Program-made: the position numbers and the translations under genes | Part shown: positions 6,012-24,533 of the stretch, piece by piece | How positions within the stretch are numbered: the first letter of the stretch is position 1 | How the letters are laid out: every line of letters starts with the position of its first letter | The notes under the pieces: generated by a model | Databases searched by the model: none | What the model was told of the DNA's origin: nothing | The model's input: the letters and a program-made list of their open reading frames with translations, nothing else | Assembly (NCBI GenBank): GCA_947626825.1 | Contig: CANQTM010000005.1 | Coordinates: 236 to 64,235, forward strand | DNA from: an uncultured Bacilli bacterium | Lineage (GTDB): Bacteria; Bacillota_I; Bacilli_A; RFN20; CAG-631 | Direction: 5' to 3' | Length of the DNA: 64,000 nt

Positions 6012-6034
6012 TTAATTGAAAGGAAATATATAAA

Positions 6035-16947: not shown

Positions 16948-17730
16948 ATGACTAATTTAGCAATTGTTTTGACTTGTTTAGATAATAAAGATTTCAAATC
17001 ATATGTTAATCAAACATCTTCATATATGTTTTTTATTTTAAACGACCATATTATTAATTACACTAAAGATTATTTATCTAATAGTGATATTGCTAAAACA
17101 TTTTTTGTAACAAAAAATAATGATAAAATAAATGATATTTTAGATAATCCAATAATAGTTAATGAAAACAATTTAAAAGAAAAATTATTAAATGAAAATT
17201 ATGATAATATTATTTTAATTAATAAATGTTTACCTTTATTAACTTCTAAAACGATTAATAAATTATTAAAAGCGCATCAAGATAAGCAATTTGATATTTC
17301 TTATTTTGATGGTTTTTATATTTTTAGTAAATCTATTTTTATAAATAAATATTTAAATAGCAATTTGTTAAATATTAATATTGTTGATTCTTTAAAAAGC
17401 AATAAAATAAAAATAAATAATAAAGAATCATTAATAGTTTATAATCGTAAAACTTTAGCAAAAGCTAATGGTTTGATGCAAGATAGAATAAATAATTATT
17501 GGTTAGAAAATGGTGTTAGTATTGAAAGTCCTAAATTAACTTTTATAGGTAAAAATGTTAAGATAGGCAATGATAGTATTATTTATCCTAATACTTATAT
17601 TTATGGTAATACTATGCTAGGCACTAATAGTAAAATAGGACCTAATGCATATATTATAGATAGTTTTATTGATAATGATTATTGCTTAGCAAATTGTATT
17701 ATCAATAAACAAAAATTATTAAAAAAATAA
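16948..17730 (+). CDS. Degenerate, C-terminally truncated GlmU-like protein (possible pseudo-enzyme or relic)
   Basis: 260 aa at the glmU position upstream of prs. It is collinear with GlmU (LAIVLTCLDNKDFKS vs the LAAGxGTRM loop; NKCLPLLTS vs GDTPLL; NGVSIESPKLTFIGKNVKIGNDSIIYPNTYIYG = start of the left-handed beta-helix). The catalytic motifs are lost and the protein ends after about 3 helix turns. Confidence 0.6.
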   Translation: MTNLAIVLTCLDNKDFKSYVNQTSSYMFFILNDHIINYTKDYLSNSDIAKTFFVTKNNDKINDILDNPIIVNENNLKEKLLNENYDNIILINKCLPLLTSKTINKLLKAHQDKQFDISYFDGFYIFSKSIFINKYLNSNLLNINIVDSLKSNKIKINNKESLIVYNRKTLAKANGLMQDRINNYWLENGVSIESPKLTFIGKNVKIGNDSIIYPNTYIYGNTMLGTNSKIGPNAYIIDSFIDNDYCLANCIINKQKLLKK

Positions 17731-17761: not shown

Positions 17762-18727
17762 ATGAAATCACGTTTAAAATTAGTTTCTTTAACAGCCAAC
17801 GAAGAACTAACACACAAAATAGCTTCATATTTAAATGTTGAAGTTATGCAATCACAAATTACTCATTTTGCTGATGGTGAAATTTTATTTGAAGGTAAAC
17901 AATCTTTTAGGGGAGATAATGTATATATTATTCAATCAACATGTGCTCCAGTTACAGAAAGATTAATGGAAGTTTTAATTTGTTGTGATGCATTAAAAAG
18001 AGCATCAGTTCGTTCAATAACATGCATAATGCCTTATTTTGGCTATTCAAGACAAGATCGAAAAGCTAAAGCAAGACAGCCAATAACAGCAAGATTAGTT
18101 GCCGATTTGTTAACTACAGCAGGTTGTCAAAGAATAGTTTGTACAGATTTGCATGCTCCACAAATTCAAGGCTTTTTTAATATTCCAGTTGATGATGTTT
18201 CAGCTTTACCTATTTATTATCGTTATTTTAAAGATTTAAACTTGAAAGATCCAGTTTGTGTTTCTCCCGATCATGGAGGTGTCGTTAGAACATCAAAGTT
18301 AGCTGAAAAATTAAATGCTCCAATAGCTATTATTGATAAACGTCGTCCAAGACCAAATGAAGCTGAAATTTTTGCTATAGTTGGTGATGTCAAAGATAAA
18401 GATTGTATAATTGTTGATGACATTGTCGATACTGCTGGAACTTTATGTCTTGCAGCTTCAAAATTAAAAGAATTAGGGGCAAGACATGTATATGCTGCCA
18501 TTTCACATGGAGTTTTATCAGAACCTGCAGTATCAAGAATTAATGAATCAGCATTAGAACAACTAGTTATTACTGATACTATACCATTACCAAAAGAAAA
18601 AGAAAGTCCTAAAATTGTTGTATTGTCAATGGCTGAATTATTTTCAAGAATAATTGCTGCTTTAGAAAATGGCGAATCATTATCAAATGTACATAAAAAT
18701 TTTGCTAGTGAACATTATAGTGATTAA
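17762..18727 (+). CDS. prs: Ribose-phosphate pyrophosphokinase
   Basis: ...GYSRQDRK... and the PRPP-binding loop CIIVDDIVDTAGT are present. 321 aa. Confidence 0.95.
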   Translation: MKSRLKLVSLTANEELTHKIASYLNVEVMQSQITHFADGEILFEGKQSFRGDNVYIIQSTCAPVTERLMEVLICCDALKRASVRSITCIMPYFGYSRQDRKAKARQPITARLVADLLTTAGCQRIVCTDLHAPQIQGFFNIPVDDVSALPIYYRYFKDLNLKDPVCVSPDHGGVVRTSKLAEKLNAPIAIIDKRRPRPNEAEIFAIVGDVKDKDCIIVDDIVDTAGTLCLAASKLKELGARHVYAAISHGVLSEPAVSRINESALEQLVITDTIPLPKEKESPKIVVLSMAELFSRIIAALENGESLSNVHKNFASEHYSD

Positions 18728-18746: not shown

Positions 18747-18786
18747 GGAAACCTATTTGAAATGTAAAATGGGTTTTCTTTTTTTA
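18747..18786 (+). terminator. Rho-independent terminator after prs
   Basis: A 7-bp stem GGAAACC/GGTTTTC (one G:U pair) with an 18-nt loop, followed by a T8 run. Confidence 0.55.
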
Positions 18787-18849: not shown

Positions 18850-18858
18850 TGCTATAAT
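18850..18858 (+). promoter_or_regulatory. Extended -10 promoter (TGCTATAAT) of the DUF1538/PII cassette
   Basis: TGCTATAAT lies 33 nt upstream of the ATG. There is no good -35, which is usual for extended -10 promoters. Confidence 0.5.
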
Positions 18859-18890
18859 AAAATTAACAAAGGGAAAGGAGAATAAACTTA

Positions 18891-20417
18891 ATGAATAGAC
18901 AATTATTAAAGAAAATCAATGAAGCACTTTTTTCGGTTTTACCTGTTGCCTTAATTGTTATTATTTTAAATTTTACTCCATTAATTTCTCTTTCAAATAC
19001 AGAAATATTTTTATTTATTTTTTCTGCAATTTTCTTGATTTTAGGTATTGGCCTTTTTAATTTAGGGGCTGATTTAGCAATGACACCTATGGGTGAACAA
19101 ATAGGCGTTGGTTTAACTAAATCAAAAAAAATAGGATTATTATTAATTTTAGCATTTTCGTTAGGATTTTTAATTACTATTGCTGAACCTGATTTATCTG
19201 CCTTAGCATCACAAGTTAGTAAAGTTATCAATAGTACTTTAATTATAATTTTGGTTGGTTTTGGTGTGGGATTATTTTTATTAATTGGTGTGTTGAAAAT
19301 AATATTTAAAAAATCTTTATCTTCTTTATTAACATTTTTTTATATGACTTTATTTTCTGTGGCCTCAATAGTTATTATTAAAGGAAATATCAATTTTTTA
19401 CCACTTGCTTTTGATTCTGGTGGTGTTACTACTGGGCCAATAACGGTACCATTTATAATGGCTTTTGGAGTGGGTATTGCTTTAACTATTGGAGGAAGAA
19501 ATGCTAATGAAAACAGTTTTGGATTAATATCATTATGTTCAATTGGTCCAATTTTGGCAGTTATTGTTTTAGGAATGTTTATTAATGATAATCTTATATA
19601 TGAAATTCCAAATGCTTATGAAATTTCTTCTAATCTTGGACATTATATATTAAGTTGTTTTGGCATCGTTATTAAAGATGTTAGTATTGCTTTAGGCCTT
19701 GTTACTTTATTTTTCTTTGTAATTAATTTTATCTTTTTAAAACTACCTAAAAATAAATTAATTCAAATTTTATGTGGAATTATTTTTACATATATTGGTT
19801 TAATAATCTTTTTAAGTGCTGTTAATGTTGGCTTTATGCCAATTGGTTATCAAATTGGTTTGCAATTAGCAAATAATAAAAAAGCTTTAGTTATATTTGC
19901 TTTTATTTTAGGTTTTGTTGTTGTTTTGGCAGAACCTGCTGTTCATGTTTTAAATAATCAAGTTGAAAATATAACAAATGGTACAGTTTCTAAAAAATCT
20001 ATGTTGATTGCTTTGTCTGTTGGTATTGGACTTTCTATTGGGCTATCTATCATTCGTATAATTTTTGATTTTTCGATTTTATATTATTTAATCCCTGGTT
20101 ATTTTATTTCTTTAGGTTTATCTTTTTTTGTTCCAAAACTTTATACTGCTATTGCTTTTGATTCTGGTGGTGTTGCTAGTGGACCTTTAACATCAACTTT
20201 TATTTTACCTTTTGCTGTTGGAGCATGTATGAGTATTTCTGGTATAGATAATGTTATGGCAAATGCTTTTGGTGTGGTTGCTATGGTTGCTATGACGCCA
20301 TTAATTACTATTCAATTTTTAGGATTTAAAGCTATAATTAATCAAAAAATGCGTGAAAAAATTGCTTTAAAGAAAATATTGGATAAATCAGATGATCAAA
20401 TTATTGATTTTATGTAA
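18891..20417 (+). CDS. Internally duplicated polytopic membrane protein, DUF1538-like
   Basis: 508 aa with more than 10 TM helices. The two halves share the signature AFDSGGVTTGPITVPFIMAFGVG / AFDSGGVASGPLTSTFILPFAVG. The family name comes from memory of this motif, not from a search. Confidence 0.65.
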   Translation: MNRQLLKKINEALFSVLPVALIVIILNFTPLISLSNTEIFLFIFSAIFLILGIGLFNLGADLAMTPMGEQIGVGLTKSKKIGLLLILAFSLGFLITIAEPDLSALASQVSKVINSTLIIILVGFGVGLFLLIGVLKIIFKKSLSSLLTFFYMTLFSVASIVIIKGNINFLPLAFDSGGVTTGPITVPFIMAFGVGIALTIGGRNANENSFGLISLCSIGPILAVIVLGMFINDNLIYEIPNAYEISSNLGHYILSCFGIVIKDVSIALGLVTLFFFVINFIFLKLPKNKLIQILCGIIFTYIGLIIFLSAVNVGFMPIGYQIGLQLANNKKALVIFAFILGFVVVLAEPAVHVLNNQVENITNGTVSKKSMLIALSVGIGLSIGLSIIRIIFDFSILYYLIPGYFISLGLSFFVPKLYTAIAFDSGGVASGPLTSTFILPFAVGACMSISGIDNVMANAFGVVAMVAMTPLITIQFLGFKAIINQKMREKIALKKILDKSDDQIIDFM

Positions 20418-20428
20418 AGGAAAAAATT

Positions 20429-20851
20429 ATGTCTAATAAGAAACAAAATGAAAAAATAAAAGATAAAGAAGTTTTCAATAAAAGAAATAATAAACCACAC
20501 CCTAGTAATATAAAGAAGTTAAAAATATTAATAACAATTGTTGATCGTAGTAAATCTTTGTTTTATCTTGATTTACTTGAACAATTTGAAGTAAATATGC
20601 AAATGGTCATTTTAGGTAAAGGTACTGCTACTTCAGAAATGCTTGGTTATCTTGGCCTAGCAGAACCTGAAAAAGCTGTTTTAATATCTTGTATTAGAGA
20701 AGATAAAATCAAAGATATTATGGCAACTTTACAAGAAAAATTTCAAAAAATAAAAAATGGTAAAGGAATTGCCTATACAATTTCAATGTCAAGTATTATT
20801 GGAGTATTAACTTATCAATTTTTAAGTAATAATCAAAATATAAAAAAATAG
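20429..20851 (+). CDS. PII-like signal-transduction protein (with basic N-terminal extension)
   Basis: 140 aa. After a ~30-aa K/N-rich leader, the pattern KILITIVDRSK...MQMVILGKGTAT...KAVLISCI looks like a PII/GlnB-type beta-alpha-beta fold. It lies 11 nt after the membrane protein. Confidence 0.5.
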   Translation: MSNKKQNEKIKDKEVFNKRNNKPHPSNIKKLKILITIVDRSKSLFYLDLLEQFEVNMQMVILGKGTATSEMLGYLGLAEPEKAVLISCIREDKIKDIMATLQEKFQKIKNGKGIAYTISMSSIIGVLTYQFLSNNQNIKK

Positions 20852-20864
20852 TAGGTGAAAAATT

Positions 20865-21182
20865 ATGAATGAAAAATTTGAAGTAATTTTATGTATTGTG
20901 AATAGTGGCTTTTCAGAAAGTGTAATGGATGCTGCAAGAAAAGTTGGTGCCAAGGGTGGAACTGTTATTAATGCTAGAGGTACAGCAGCCAAAGAAGCTG
21001 AAAAAATATTCAATATTACAATTCAACCAGAAAAAGAAATAGTAATGATTTTAGCTAAATCAAACTTAAAAAATGATATTTTACACACATTATATGAACA
21101 TGTAGGTCCAAATACTTTGGCTCAAGGAATTGCTTTTGCTTTACCAGTTGATGAAGTAGTTGGAATTCAAGAAAATAAATAA
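20865..21182 (+). CDS. PII-like signal-transduction protein
   Basis: 105 aa. FEVILCIVNSGFSESVMDAARKVGAKGGTVINARGT...KEIVMILA... is paralogous to the preceding ORF. AGGTG SD present. Confidence 0.55.
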   Translation: MNEKFEVILCIVNSGFSESVMDAARKVGAKGGTVINARGTAAKEAEKIFNITIQPEKEIVMILAKSNLKNDILHTLYEHVGPNTLAQGIAFALPVDEVVGIQENK

Positions 21183-21263: not shown

Positions 21264-21293
21264 TTGACTTTTAGTCAAAAAATATAGTATTAT
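21264..21293 (+). promoter_or_regulatory. Sigma-A promoter of rplM-rpsI
   Basis: TTGACT (21264-21269), an 18-nt spacer, then TATTAT (21288-21293). The -35 is part of the palindrome TTGACTTTTAGTCAA. Confidence 0.55.
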
Positions 21294-21356: not shown

Positions 21357-21794
21357 ATGCAAAGACAAACAACAATTATTAAACCGCAAGATATTGAAAG
21401 AAAGTGGTATGTTGTAGATGCAACTAATATTCCACTAGGAAGACTTGCTTCAAATGTTGCAAAAGTTTTAACTGGAAAAGCAAAACCAACATATCAACCA
21501 AATATTGATACAGGTGATTATGTAATTATTATTAATGCTACTAAAGTTTTATTAACTGGTAATAAACTAAATAATAAGAACTATTATAATGTTTCTGGTT
21601 ATTTAGGTGGTTTAAGAACTCGTAGTGCAAAAGTAATGTTAAAAGATTATCCTGTTGAAATGGTTGAAAGAGCTGTATGGGGAATGCTTCCAAAGGGCCG
21701 TTTAGGTCGTAGAATGTATAAAAAATTACATGTATATGCAGGTGACAAGCATAATAATGATGCTCAAAAACCTGAAGTACTTGTAATTAAGTAG
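21357..21794 (+). CDS. rplM: 50S ribosomal protein L13
   Basis: ...RKWYVVDA....LGRLAS.VA..L.GK.KP.Y is a typical L13 sequence. Confidence 0.96.
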   Translation: MQRQTTIIKPQDIERKWYVVDATNIPLGRLASNVAKVLTGKAKPTYQPNIDTGDYVIIINATKVLLTGNKLNNKNYYNVSGYLGGLRTRSAKVMLKDYPVEMVERAVWGMLPKGRLGRRMYKKLHVYAGDKHNNDAQKPEVLVIK

Positions 21795-21805
21795 GAGGAT
21801 AAAAT

Positions 21806-22216
21806 ATGCCAGCAAAGAAAAAAAGTGATGCAGTACGTTATATGGGTACTGGTAGAAGAAAAGCATCTGTTGCTAGAGTTATTTTAGTTCCAGGTACTGG
21901 TAATATTACAGTTAATGGAGTTAAAGTTGAAAATTATCTTCCAGCAGCTACATTTGTAATGGATTTAAAACAACCATTAGTTGCAACATCAAATGAAACA
22001 CGTTTTGACATTACATGTAATGTTAAAGGTGGCGGTTATAATGGTCAAACTGGTGCAATTCGTTTAGGTATTGCAAGAGCTTTACTTCAAGCATCAGCAG
22101 ATTATCGTCCAACATTGAAATCTTTAGGTTTATTAACTAGAGATGCTCGTGTTAAAGAACGTAAGAAATATGGTCTTAAGGGTGCTAGAAGAGCTCCACA
22201 ATTCTCAAAACGTTAA
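21806..22216 (+). CDS. rpsI: 30S ribosomal protein S9
   Basis: Y.GTGRRK...ARV.L.PG.G...C-terminal ...[19 protein letters not shown]. Confidence 0.96.
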
Positions 22217-22220
22217 TCTA

Positions 22221-22266
22221 CAAACAACAAAAAATTTGGATTATTCCAAATTTTTTTGTTTGTTTA
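22221..22266 (+). terminator. Rho-independent terminator after rpsI
   Basis: A long palindrome CAAACAACAAAAAATTTGGA-TTAT-TCCAAATTTTTTTGTTTGTTT, followed by T-rich sequence. Confidence 0.65.
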
Positions 22267-22310
22267 CTATTTTTATTTTATTTTTCATATTATTTATTGG
22301 TGAAAATATT

Positions 22311-22967
22311 TTGAAAAAAAATTGTTTTTTAATTTTAATTTTTATTTTTTTAACTAGTTGCTTTAATATAAATAAAACCAATTATTTGATAGATAGTGTT
22401 ATTTTTATTGATCCAGGTCATGGTGGCAATGATAATGGAACAAGTTATTTAGATGTATTTGAAGATGAATTAAATTTAAAATTATCAACTATCTTATATG
22501 AAATGATTTTAGATGATGGAGGCATATGCTATTTATCTAGAGTTTCTGATTATGATTTAAGTTCAATGTATGCCAAGAATCATAAAATTGAAGATTTAAA
22601 AAAAAGGGTTCAATATATTGATAGTTTAAATACAACTTTATTTATTTCTTTACATTTAAATTATTATTCAAGCTCTAAAGTTAATGGTATACAAGTTTTT
22701 TATCAAAAACAAAACCAAGAAAGTAAAGAACTGGCAATTTTTTTACAAGATATTTTAAATGTAGAAAATCAAAGAAAAAAACAATGTAAGGTAGGAGATT
22801 ATTTTATTTTAAATAATACAACTTCTTTAGGTGTTTTAATTGAATATGGTTTTTTATCAAGCGAATATGATCGTCAAAGATTATTAGATGATAACTATTT
22901 AAATCATTTAGCTAAGTTAATAAAAAGTTCAATAAGTGAATATTTAAAAAATAAATTGAAATACTAA
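22311..22967 (+). CDS. cwlD: N-acetylmuramoyl-L-alanine amidase, CwlD-like, with lipoprotein-type signal peptide
   Basis: FIDPGHGGNDNG...SLHLN... is the Amidase_3 motif. I prefer the TTG at 22311 (GGTGA SD), which gives MKKNCFLILIFIFLTSC with an LTSC lipobox. The track start at 22143 lies inside rpsI and spans its terminator. cwlD also lies shortly downstream of rpsI in Bacillus. Confidence 0.7.
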   Translation: MKKNCFLILIFIFLTSCFNINKTNYLIDSVIFIDPGHGGNDNGTSYLDVFEDELNLKLSTILYEMILDDGGICYLSRVSDYDLSSMYAKNHKIEDLKKRVQYIDSLNTTLFISLHLNYYSSSKVNGIQVFYQKQNQESKELAIFLQDILNVENQRKKQCKVGDYFILNNTTSLGVLIEYGFLSSEYDRQRLLDDNYLNHLAKLIKSSISEYLKNKLKY

Positions 22968-23477: not shown

Positions 23478-24533
23478 ATGGATACTAAAATATATCAGGA
23501 AAAAGAATATAAAAAAATAATTGCTGATCTTAACAATGGACAAGTAGTTGGTTTTCCTACAGAAACAGTATATGGTTTAGCAGTTGTAAGTGATAATTTA
23601 GATGCTTTAGAAAAACTATATCAAATAAAAGGTAGAGATGAAAATAAACCAATTTCTTTAATGGTTTCTGATATTACTACAATAAAAAAAATAGCCAAAG
23701 TTAATAAATGGCAAGAAAAAATTTTAAAAGAATTTATGCCTGGTCCTTTAACTGTTATTTTAAAATCAAAAAAAATAATAATTCCTAATTATATTACTTT
23801 AGGTATTAGAATACCTAAACACGATTTGATTTTAAAAATATTACAAACAATTAACAAACCTTTATTAGTGACAAGTGCTAATTTATCAAATAGTCCATCT
23901 CTTAATAAATATATTGATGTTTATAAAACATTTAATGGGAAAATAGCTTCTTTAATAGCTTTAGATGCTAACAATTCTTTGGCATCAAGCGTAATTGATA
24001 TAACTTCAAGACCAATTAAAGTCTTAAGAAAAGGTTTAATAAGTGAAGAAGACATTAATAAATGTTTAAAGAAAGAAGGAAAACAAAAAATGAAAAAAAT
24101 AATTGCTATAGGCTGTGATCATGGTGGTCTTGAATTAAAAAATTCTATTATAAAACATTATAAAAATAAATATGAATTTATTGATGTTGGGACTTATGAC
24201 ACTACTTCTTGTGATTATCCTGATTATGCTTTTAAAGTTGGGGAAATAGTTAATCAAAATAAAGCAAATTTTGGAATTTTAATTTGTAAAAGTGGAATAG
24301 GAATGTCAATAGCTGCAAATAAAGTGCCAAATATCCGCTGTGCTTTAGTTTGCAATGCTAAAAATGCTATGCTAGCTCATAAACATAATAATGCCAATGT
24401 TTTAGCAATGGGCAGCAATGATGTTAGCAAAAATATAGCTTATAAAATTATTGATAGTTATGAAAGTGTTGAATTTGAAGAAAGACATTCACTTAGAATT
24501 TCTAAAATAAGTGCTTATGAAAAAAGAAAATAA
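23478..24533 (+). CDS. Fusion protein: L-threonylcarbamoyladenylate synthase (TsaC/YwlC, YrdC domain) + ribose-5-phosphate isomerase B
   Basis: Residues 1-204 carry YrdC motifs (GFPTETVYGLA, PGPLTVIL, VTSANLSNSPS). Residues 205-351 are RpiB/LacAB (MKKIIAIGCDHGG, ICKSGIGMSIAANK, FEERH). There is no stop between them. An internal AAGGA SD plus ATG sits at 24090. Confidence 0.8.
   Translation: MDTKIYQEKEYKKIIADLNNGQVVGFPTETVYGLAVVSDNLDALEKLYQIKGRDENKPISLMVSDITTIKKIAKVNKWQEKILKEFMPGPLTVILKSKKIIIPNYITLGIRIPKHDLILKILQTINKPLLVTSANLSNSPSLNKYIDVYKTFNGKIASLIALDANNSLASSVIDITSRPIKVLRKGLISEEDINKCLKKEGKQKMKKIIAIGCDHGGLELKNSIIKHYKNKYEFIDVGTYDTTSCDYPDYAFKVGEIVNQNKANFGILICKSGIGMSIAANKVPNIRCALVCNAKNAMLAHKHNNANVLAMGSNDVSKNIAYKIIDSYESVEFEERHSLRISKISAYEKRK

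Follow-up and report, generated by a model that had tools for sequence, protein, structure and literature searches.

A fused DUF1538 membrane protein encoded with two PII-like proteins: a putative PII-regulated relative of the UmpAB cation/proton antiporter

Described relatives and the cassette

PII proteins are, to our knowledge, among the most widespread signal transducers, and few of their transporter partners are understood (AmtB, SbtA and some ABC systems). The well-studied pairs, which are GlnK-AmtB, SbtB-SbtA and CPII beside DabAB, carry nitrogen or inorganic carbon species. Another candidate for this group is a cassette of three genes in a 64,000-nucleotide stretch of DNA from an uncultured Bacilli bacterium (contig CANQTM010000005.1, positions 236 to 64,235; hereafter the window). 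It encodes a membrane protein with two DUF1538 domains (MEM) and two small proteins of the PII type (PIIA and PIIB). The principle of a PII-partnered transporter is known; new here are the family to which the transporter belongs, the occurrence of PII domains in pairs or in tandem, and an effector site that is non-canonical. The three genes are as follows.

18891-20417, plus strand: MEM, fused double-DUF1538 membrane protein of the UmpAB family, 508 amino acids (aa)
20429-20851, plus strand: PIIA, divergent PII-fold protein, 140 aa
20865-21182, plus strand: PIIB, PII-family protein with a short T-loop, 105 aa

The only functional study of the DUF1538 family concerns UmpAB, a split DUF1538 pair that was cloned from Halomonas zhaodongensis and reported to function in Na+(Li+,K+)/H+ antiport (Meng et al., 2017; PMC5484666). 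Expressing umpA together with umpB rescues Escherichia coli KNabc, and the two proteins, which are 43% identical, co-immunoprecipitate (PMC5484666). Vesicles of KNabc containing UmpAB display Na+/Li+/K+-H+ antiport with K0.5 values of 0.26-0.46 mM and a pH optimum of 9 (PMC5484666). A preliminary description of the window, made from the sequence, had held that the membrane family had no experimentally assigned function and had named an existing characterization as grounds for refutation. This statement was wrong: UmpAB is a characterized antiporter (PMC5484666), and the NCBIfam UmpA and UmpB models match MEM.

The 4.2-kilobase (kb) umpAB clone did not extend beyond umpB, and PII is not mentioned in the paper (PMC5484666). 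The operon was located in the genome of Vreelandella zhaodongensis via the published primer F4, where a PII-like open reading frame (ORF; 117 aa from the Met at 6013) lies directly after umpB. This ORF matches Pfam P-II with 44.5 bits and is 36% identical to PIIB (E 5e-19). In strain NEAU-ST10-25 (L165:5233-6106, minus strand; loci of this survey are numbered with L) the umpAB operon goes on with the PII-like gene and then with a gene for a CBS-pair protein of 138 aa, which is also absent from the 2017 paper (PMC5484666). The homolog table of the same paper includes a pair from Planococcus donghaensis (PMC5484666). That pair is locus L109, in which a tandem PII-PII gene lies downstream. In the literature checked, citations of UmpAB serve only to annotate antiporters; full-text searching returned six papers with DUF1538 but no paper combining 'PII-like' and 'UmpAB'. 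The linkage described below corrects the context of the study. Since it omitted the adjacent regulator, the physiological behavior of such antiporters may have been mis-measured.

MEM and UmpAB belong to the same Pfam family, comprise two homologous units of seven predicted transmembrane (TM) segments, and are each followed directly by a PII-like gene. MEM is 26-36% identical to UmpA and UmpB of V. zhaodongensis and keeps their AEP and FDSGGVTT motifs, including the DSGGVTT core. The two systems differ in that the MEM units are fused in one chain of 508 aa whereas UmpA and UmpB are separate, that two PII genes are found here and one at umpAB, and that the MEM halves share 32% identity compared with 43% between UmpA and UmpB (PMC5484666).

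Our preferred reading, to which we assign a probability of about 0.55, is that the cassette encodes a cation/proton antiporter of the UmpAB family that is built as an inverted 7+7 repeat and is gated by its own PII-like regulator, a ligand-sensing hetero-oligomer. MEM would be a single-chain version of the UmpA/UmpB pair, with its two homologous seven-TM units in opposite orientations and, in each unit, a conserved Glu (AEP) and Asp (FDSGG) placed where helices are predicted to break. Its homology to UmpAB makes the exchange of monovalent cations (Na+/K+/Li+) for protons its most likely activity. The divergent PIIA and PIIB, the latter nearer to canonical PII, would serve as dedicated cytoplasmic regulators, probably as a hetero-oligomer docking on the K/R-rich cytoplasmic loops and the C-terminal tail of the second half of MEM. 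A small-molecule signal may cause such an oligomer to plug the transporter or to open it, in the manner of GlnK-AmtB and SbtB-SbtA. The data show the domain identities, the duplication within MEM, the PII fold, a nearly universal linkage with its fusion architectures and the opposite charge bias of the halves; what the transporter carries, how the proteins assemble and in what ratio, which ligand is sensed and in which direction regulation acts are parts of the model that we infer.

An internally duplicated membrane protein

MEM contains two Pfam DUF1538 (PF07556) domains (E 1.5e-124; 413.7 bits against a gathering score of 22.6). Half A (approximately residues 1-235) and half B (approximately 249-508) are 32% identical over 219 aligned residues (E 2e-26), and each carries the same signature motif, ...AFDSGGVTTGPITVPF... 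in the first and ...AFDSGGVASGPLTSTF... in the second. The internal duplication, the shared signature and the double DUF1538 match had all been anticipated from the sequence and are borne out. Two invariant segments, one in each half, fall at helix breaks of the AlphaFold model.

19413-19439, plus strand: codons of D175-P183 (DSGGVTTGP), invariant columns, at the predicted TM6 break of half A (H167-181 / H185-200)
20160-20186, plus strand: codons of D424-P432 (DSGGVASGP), the equivalent motif in invariant columns, at the predicted TM6' break of half B (H416-428 / H432-449)

The invariant AEP motifs (E99 and E348) also coincide with helix breaks. The model consists entirely of helices, about ten in each half, and has a predicted local distance difference test score (pLDDT) of 82.2 and a predicted TM-score (pTM) of 0.81. 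Foldseek found no significant match between this model and solved structures in the PDB (best E 0.07, TM-scores 0.12-0.18), and a sequence search of the PDB likewise gave no significant relative. EAAT/GltPh, MFS and PPase were considered as structural relatives and rejected as weak matches with TM-scores below 0.2. DUF1538 transporters are therefore a family without a solved structural relative in the PDB.

The orientation of the halves was approached by counting Lys and Arg residues in eight aligned loop regions of 76 close fused proteins, 36 diverse fused proteins and 45 split pairs. In all three sets the K+R bias alternates within each half and is opposite between the A and B halves. The means for the close fused set are as follows.

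N-terminus: half A 3.6, half B 1.0
Loop 1-2: half A 0.4, half B 3.7
Loop 2-3: half A 2.1, half B 0.45
AEP loop: half A 0.7, half B 3.2
Loop 4-5: half A 2.4, half B 1.1
Loop before DSGG: half A 0.5, half B 0.8
GGRN loop: half A 2.2, half B 0.45
C-terminus: half A 0.5, half B 5.9

The alternation over eight regions argues for seven crossings per half. By the positive-inside rule it indicates that MEM is a 7+7 TM inverted repeat, in which half A is predicted to be N-in/C-out and half B N-out/C-in. Split DUF1538 pairs would then be antiparallel heterodimers, and the broken TM6 and TM6', each with its conserved Asp, would come together in the core of the membrane. The C-terminus of half B is rich in Lys and Arg and is therefore predicted to be cytoplasmic; it is the same point at which PII domains are fused in some homologs.

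PII-like partners and their linkage to DUF1538

The genes of the cassette are separated by 11 nucleotides (nt; MEM-PIIA) and 13 nt (PIIA-PIIB), and Shine-Dalgarno-like motifs (GGAG/AGGA/AGGTGA) lie 7-10 nt ahead of all three ATGs. PIIA and PIIB are paralogous, with 23% identity over 99 residues (E 2e-8). This agrees with the preliminary description, which had seen two small paralogs at these gaps, each with its own Shine-Dalgarno sequence, and had likened both to the PII/GlnB fold. The fold holds for both proteins along different lines of evidence, with the expected Pfam match found in PIIB (P-II, PF00543; 28.4 bits against a cutoff of 25) but not in PIIA, whose assignment comes from structure prediction and paralogy. 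The alignment of PIIB with PII structures covers its full length. A few homologs of PIIA have precomputed PF00543 matches.

The AlphaFold model of PIIA (pLDDT 72.8 overall, about 90 in the core) shows a predicted ferredoxin-like beta-alpha-beta-beta-alpha-beta fold with the T-loop between beta2 and beta3 (E31-39, H40-51, E57-62, a loop, E82-90, H91-107, E114-119). Its 50 top Foldseek matches in the PDB are almost all PII or PII-like proteins, the best being PstA, CPII, SbtB and GlnK1. PstA/DarA and CPII, which are receptors of c-di-AMP, or of ADP/AMP and bicarbonate, resemble PIIA as non-canonical PII-like proteins with altered loops and as its top matches (E 2e-4 to 1e-3), but share only 11-20% sequence identity with it. 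The basic N-terminal extension of about 30 aa that had been noticed in the 140-aa protein is confirmed, and its residues 1-22 are predicted to be disordered (pLDDT below 50). At the other end of the protein a YQFLSN tail is conserved. PIIA of the source clade has lost the GAxGGT segment and retains GKGTA, EPEK and NGKGIAY.

Across phyla, the PII subfamily of these loci is marked by the signature LIVTIV..G..GAxGGT..GRGTGxxE..FGIxIEPEKE..PGxGIAF.LPV..V.GI.H. Within EPEKE and PGxGIAF it keeps K58 and the glycine-rich loops of canonical PII (B-loop glycines G87/G89). A by-eye alignment had suggested that K58 is replaced by Glu; this was dropped, as the hidden Markov model (HMM) alignment equates the Lys of EPEKE with K58. 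The canonical phosphate-binding residues are changed (K90 to I/L, R101 to G, R103 variable or His), and the T-loop is about seven residues shorter than in canonical PII and lacks Tyr51. PIIB is the ortholog of the lone PII gene that follows split DUF1538 pairs, umpAB included.

Searched against PII structures in the PDB, the subfamily profile gives E values of 1e-6 to 1e-3, the best sequence match being NifI1 (9p1x_H, 105 aa, short T-loop). NifI1 and NifI2 of methanogens and Clostridia are likewise encoded by two adjoining paralogous PII genes of unequal length. They differ from PIIA and PIIB in their target, which is nitrogenase there and would be a membrane transporter here, where no nif context is found. 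GlnK-AmtB and SbtB-SbtA offer a further parallel: in these systems, too, a small PII-fold gene adjoins a secondary transporter gene and is probably co-transcribed with it, and SbtB and GlnK1 are among the structural neighbors of PIIA. The present system departs from them in its membrane partner, which is neither of the Amt nor of the SbtA family (only DUF1538 was detected in MEM), in its two paralogous PII subunits or their tandem fusion, in its shorter T-loop without conserved K90, R101 and R103, and in that the complex is a predicted one.

Gene linkage was followed in two sets of loci. The close set comes from a first genome scan and holds 80 loci at 46-69% identity, mostly from metagenome-assembled genomes (MAGs) of gut Clostridia and Bacilli, together with Anaerocaecibacter muris. 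The diverse set holds 84 loci, of which 80 are distant loci from a scan with an alignment of the B half and four are plasmid loci; a mixed alignment of A and B halves was too divergent for the search and was replaced. The bacteria represented are Proteobacteria, Acidobacteria, Myxococcota, Bdellovibrionota, Desulfobacterota, Bacilli, Clostridia, Spirochaetes, Planctomycetes, Bacteroidota, Caldiserica and Aminicenantes, and the archaea comprise four lineages (Methanospirillum, Methanomicrobiales, Methanomassiliicoccaceae and Woesearchaeota). Architectures were assigned by HMM scans of all ORFs in the loci.

The order DUF1538-PIIA-PIIB is present in 73 of the 80 close loci; two others are cut after PIIA, and five are without downstream DNA. 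A PII gene stands next to the transporter gene in every informative close locus (75/75), and in the diverse set a PII-like gene lies directly downstream in 79 of the 82 loci that have downstream DNA. DUF1538 followed by one or more PII-like genes is thus the arrangement of nearly all 157 informative loci, in bacteria and archaea alike; the preliminary description had named a lack of conserved linkage in other genomes as grounds for refutation. The diverse loci divide as follows.

Split A+B with one PII: 28
Split A+B with tandem PII-PII: 11
Split A+B with two separate PII: 4
Fused AB with tandem PII-PII: 32 (33 if L159, with its weak first domain, is included)
Fused AB with two separate PII: 2
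Fused AB with PII at which the contig ends (L127): 1
Exceptions (L102, L113, L131): 3
Truncated, no downstream DNA: 2

Among the exceptions, L102 has its PII gene upstream on the opposite strand, L113 has PII between two DUF1538 genes, and the fragmentary L131 has only a sub-threshold PII-like ORF downstream. In L113 (2688-6474, a Spirochaetales MAG) two fused DUF1538 genes stand on either side of one tandem PII-PII gene, an arrangement suggesting that one regulator may serve two transporters. Single PII domains occur in the diverse loci only with split transporters, and in two-domain forms the more divergent, PIIA-like domain always comes first. Tandem PII-PII proteins are encoded in 43 of the 84 diverse loci.

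A search of 1.84 billion representatives gave 3,738 clusters with E <= 1e-3. Some of these proteins are apparent fusions: P0459 (720 aa) joins two DUF1538 domains to PIIA-like and PIIB-like domains at the C-terminus of one chain, and P0400 (654 aa) joins two DUF1538 domains to a C-terminal PIIA-like domain. Other long homologs, P0372 and P0380 among them, carry acidic low-complexity tails in place of PII domains. As Rosetta-stone evidence, the tandem and the transporter-PII fusions argue for one physical complex in which the transporter, PIIA and PIIB would act together. The hetero-oligomeric PII pair that had been proposed as a possibility is plausible, because both PII domains are joined in the 43 tandem fusions and in P0459. 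The 1:1 tandem fusions argue against the 2:1 heterotrimer of NifI1,2 and suggest an assembly of another kind.

The association of DUF1538 with PII is robust, broad and apparently undescribed. An adjacency that is merely incidental, with the small genes encoding ordinary nitrogen-regulatory PII proteins unrelated to MEM, would fit the name 'P-II family nitrogen regulator' that PIIB homologs bear in databases. It is very improbable, as the linkage extends over two domains of life, fusions exist, the proteins form a subfamily of their own with the EPEKE / PGxGIAF signature and a short T-loop, and no glnA, amtB or nif context accompanies them. The synteny and fusion data together effectively refute it.

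Alternatively, MEM may be mainly a sensor or anchor that recruits or releases the PII-like proteins at the membrane, which would control other cytoplasmic targets. PII proteins regulate multiple targets, GlnK is known to be sequestered in an AmtB-dependent manner, and the basic disordered N-terminal tail of PIIA could make further contacts. Such a role is nevertheless improbable given the covalent PII-transporter fusions of some organisms, the strict one-to-one linkage with no other conserved neighbor, and the transport activity of UmpAB in the absence of PII (PMC5484666).

A broader reading of the same data, tentative and on the doubtful side, would describe an ancient and nearly obligate DUF1538-PII module with an antiparallel 7+7 fold unrepresented in the PDB, a second kind of heteromeric PII (A3B3 or stacked trimers, as the 1:1 stoichiometry suggests) and a non-canonical effector. 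Paired or tandem PII domains could in that case provide a second example of heteromeric PII signaling. The linkage ties an orphan PII-like subfamily, now mis-named 'nitrogen regulator', to one membrane family, which at 50% identity forms about 3,700 clusters. A concrete hypothesis, regulated cation/proton exchange, comes with it, and tractable carriers of the module include Halomonas, Planococcus, Virgibacillus, Methanospirillum and Anaerocaecibacter muris.

Substrate and genomic surroundings

The preliminary description had proposed a ligand-gated transporter or channel of unknown substrate. A transporter is retained, and its substrate is probably monovalent cations/H+, by homology only. Several points weigh against the antiporter reading or parts of it. 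MEM scores 161.4 and 127.6 bits with the NCBIfam UmpA and UmpB models (NF041627/NF041628), far under the equivalog cutoffs of 490/500, and is only 26-36% identical to the two proteins; this is a family-level match, so that UmpA/UmpB function is not transferable as that of an equivalog. The sole experimental report consists of heterologous complementation and acridine-orange dequenching without the PII partner (PMC5484666). Support for the 7+7 topology comes from the positive-inside rule and from an AlphaFold model, and the alignment behind that model was shallow (32 sequences sharing 64-83% identity). At gathering thresholds, neither a riboswitch (for Na+, Li+ or anything else) nor another regulatory RNA precedes the DUF1538 genes of 55 related loci. 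Finally, the replacement of K90, R101 and R103 together with the short T-loop suggests that the sensed signal may not be ATP/ADP/2-oxoglutarate.

The same architecture and PII gating could serve another substrate, such as bicarbonate, ammonium or a small ion or metabolite tied to carbon or nitrogen status, with UmpAB antiport being a side activity or specific to the halophile clade. This is the main rival, possible but less likely than the antiporter reading. The nitrogen and inorganic carbon species carried in the well-studied PII-transporter pairs speak for it, as does the distance of MEM and all sampled relatives from the UmpAB equivalog (80-161 against 490-500 bits). The purely heterologous evidence for UmpAB points the same way (PMC5484666). 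In addition, one Clostridia clade has the cassette beside genes for aldose 1-epimerase, a Na:alanine symporter (AgcS) controlled by a glycine riboswitch and a class IV aminotransferase. This amino-acid neighborhood is limited to one closely related clade, however, and was set aside as lineage-specific synteny. The Asp and Glu residues conserved within the membrane, where helices break, are suited to binding cations, the PII-like proteins have not kept the canonical 2-oxoglutarate/ATP site, and 148 flanking genes of the diverse loci revealed no recurrent partner and no nitrogen or carbon-fixation theme.

Regulated monovalent cation/proton exchange, the preferred reading, finds a few scattered companions among these 148 genes: Usp (4), CBS (3), TrkA_C (2), MnhG (2), ClC (1), CNNM (1) and the C-terminal domain of P-type cation ATPases in three genes, two upstream and one downstream. 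Such ion-homeostasis and nucleotide-sensing neighbors are a weak clue, too weak to assign a substrate. In Planococcus an MnhG/MrpG-like gene lies directly upstream of the DUF1538-PII cluster on the same strand (L109:2260-2631 and L110:2634-2885); the operon of the Mrp Na+/H+ antiporter ends with MnhG/MrpG. A 2026 machine-learning model for predicting, from genomes, the pH at which growth is optimal has PF07556 among its key pH-adaptation genes (PMC13255231).

A riboswitch and leader scan of the window between 16 and 24 kb (E <= 0.1) gave no match before the DUF1538 gene. Glycine, lysine, TPP and T-box RNA matches were considered as DUF1538 leaders and rejected, as they belong to neighboring genes. 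For instance, glycine riboswitches at L011:2530-2625, L025:2463-2564 and L053:3670-3765 (minus strand) drive the divergent Na:alanine-family symporter beside the cassette. In about 30 loci an aldose 1-epimerase gene precedes the DUF1538 gene on the same strand, at a distance of 10-230 nt.

In the window, which is of low G+C content (about 27%) and has its closest relatives among uncultured Bacilli and Anaeroplasmataceae-like MAGs, the cassette sits between prs (17762-18727) and rplM-rpsI (21357-22216), identified by Pfam as prs and L13/S9. The order prs / DUF1538 / PIIA / PIIB / rplM / rpsI recurs in three independent ENA metagenome assemblies, which gives the cassette independent support. These flanks are particular to the source organism; other loci have different ones. 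The following signals surround the trio.

18747-18778, plus strand: terminator-like hairpin and T-run 3' of prs, upstream cassette boundary (pattern scan)
18850-18858, plus strand: TGcTATAAT, an extended -10-like motif and putative promoter, 32 nt 5' of the MEM start codon (read from the sequence, consensus match only)
21264-21293, plus strand: TTGACT-18-TATTAT, a promoter-like site 5' of rplM-rpsI, downstream boundary (pattern scan)

All of these are consensus matches only, and promoter-like sites are not enriched in the region (21, compared with 23 in shuffled sequence). A self-contained cassette of DUF1538 and two PII genes, as first proposed, is supported. Its transcriptional autonomy stands in part: the prs terminator-like hairpin, the extended -10-like motif and the rplM promoter-like site were recovered, but a pattern scan of the PIIB-rplM interval gave no terminator-like site.

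Three further genes near the cassette, all on the plus strand, deserve mention. Upstream of prs, in the usual position of glmU, lies a gene for a hexapeptide-repeat protein of 260 aa (16948-17730) in which no N-terminal nucleotidyltransferase domain is recognizable in Pfam. A single ORF at 23478-24533 combines Sua5/YciO/YrdC (TsaC-like) and ribose-5-phosphate isomerase B (LacAB_rpiB) domains. An amidase_3 (N-acetylmuramoyl-L-alanine amidase) ORF at 22143-22967 shares about 70 nt with the 3' end of rpsI. Its listed start is probably over-extended, since the gene is called from a later start, with 265 aa, in sister contigs.

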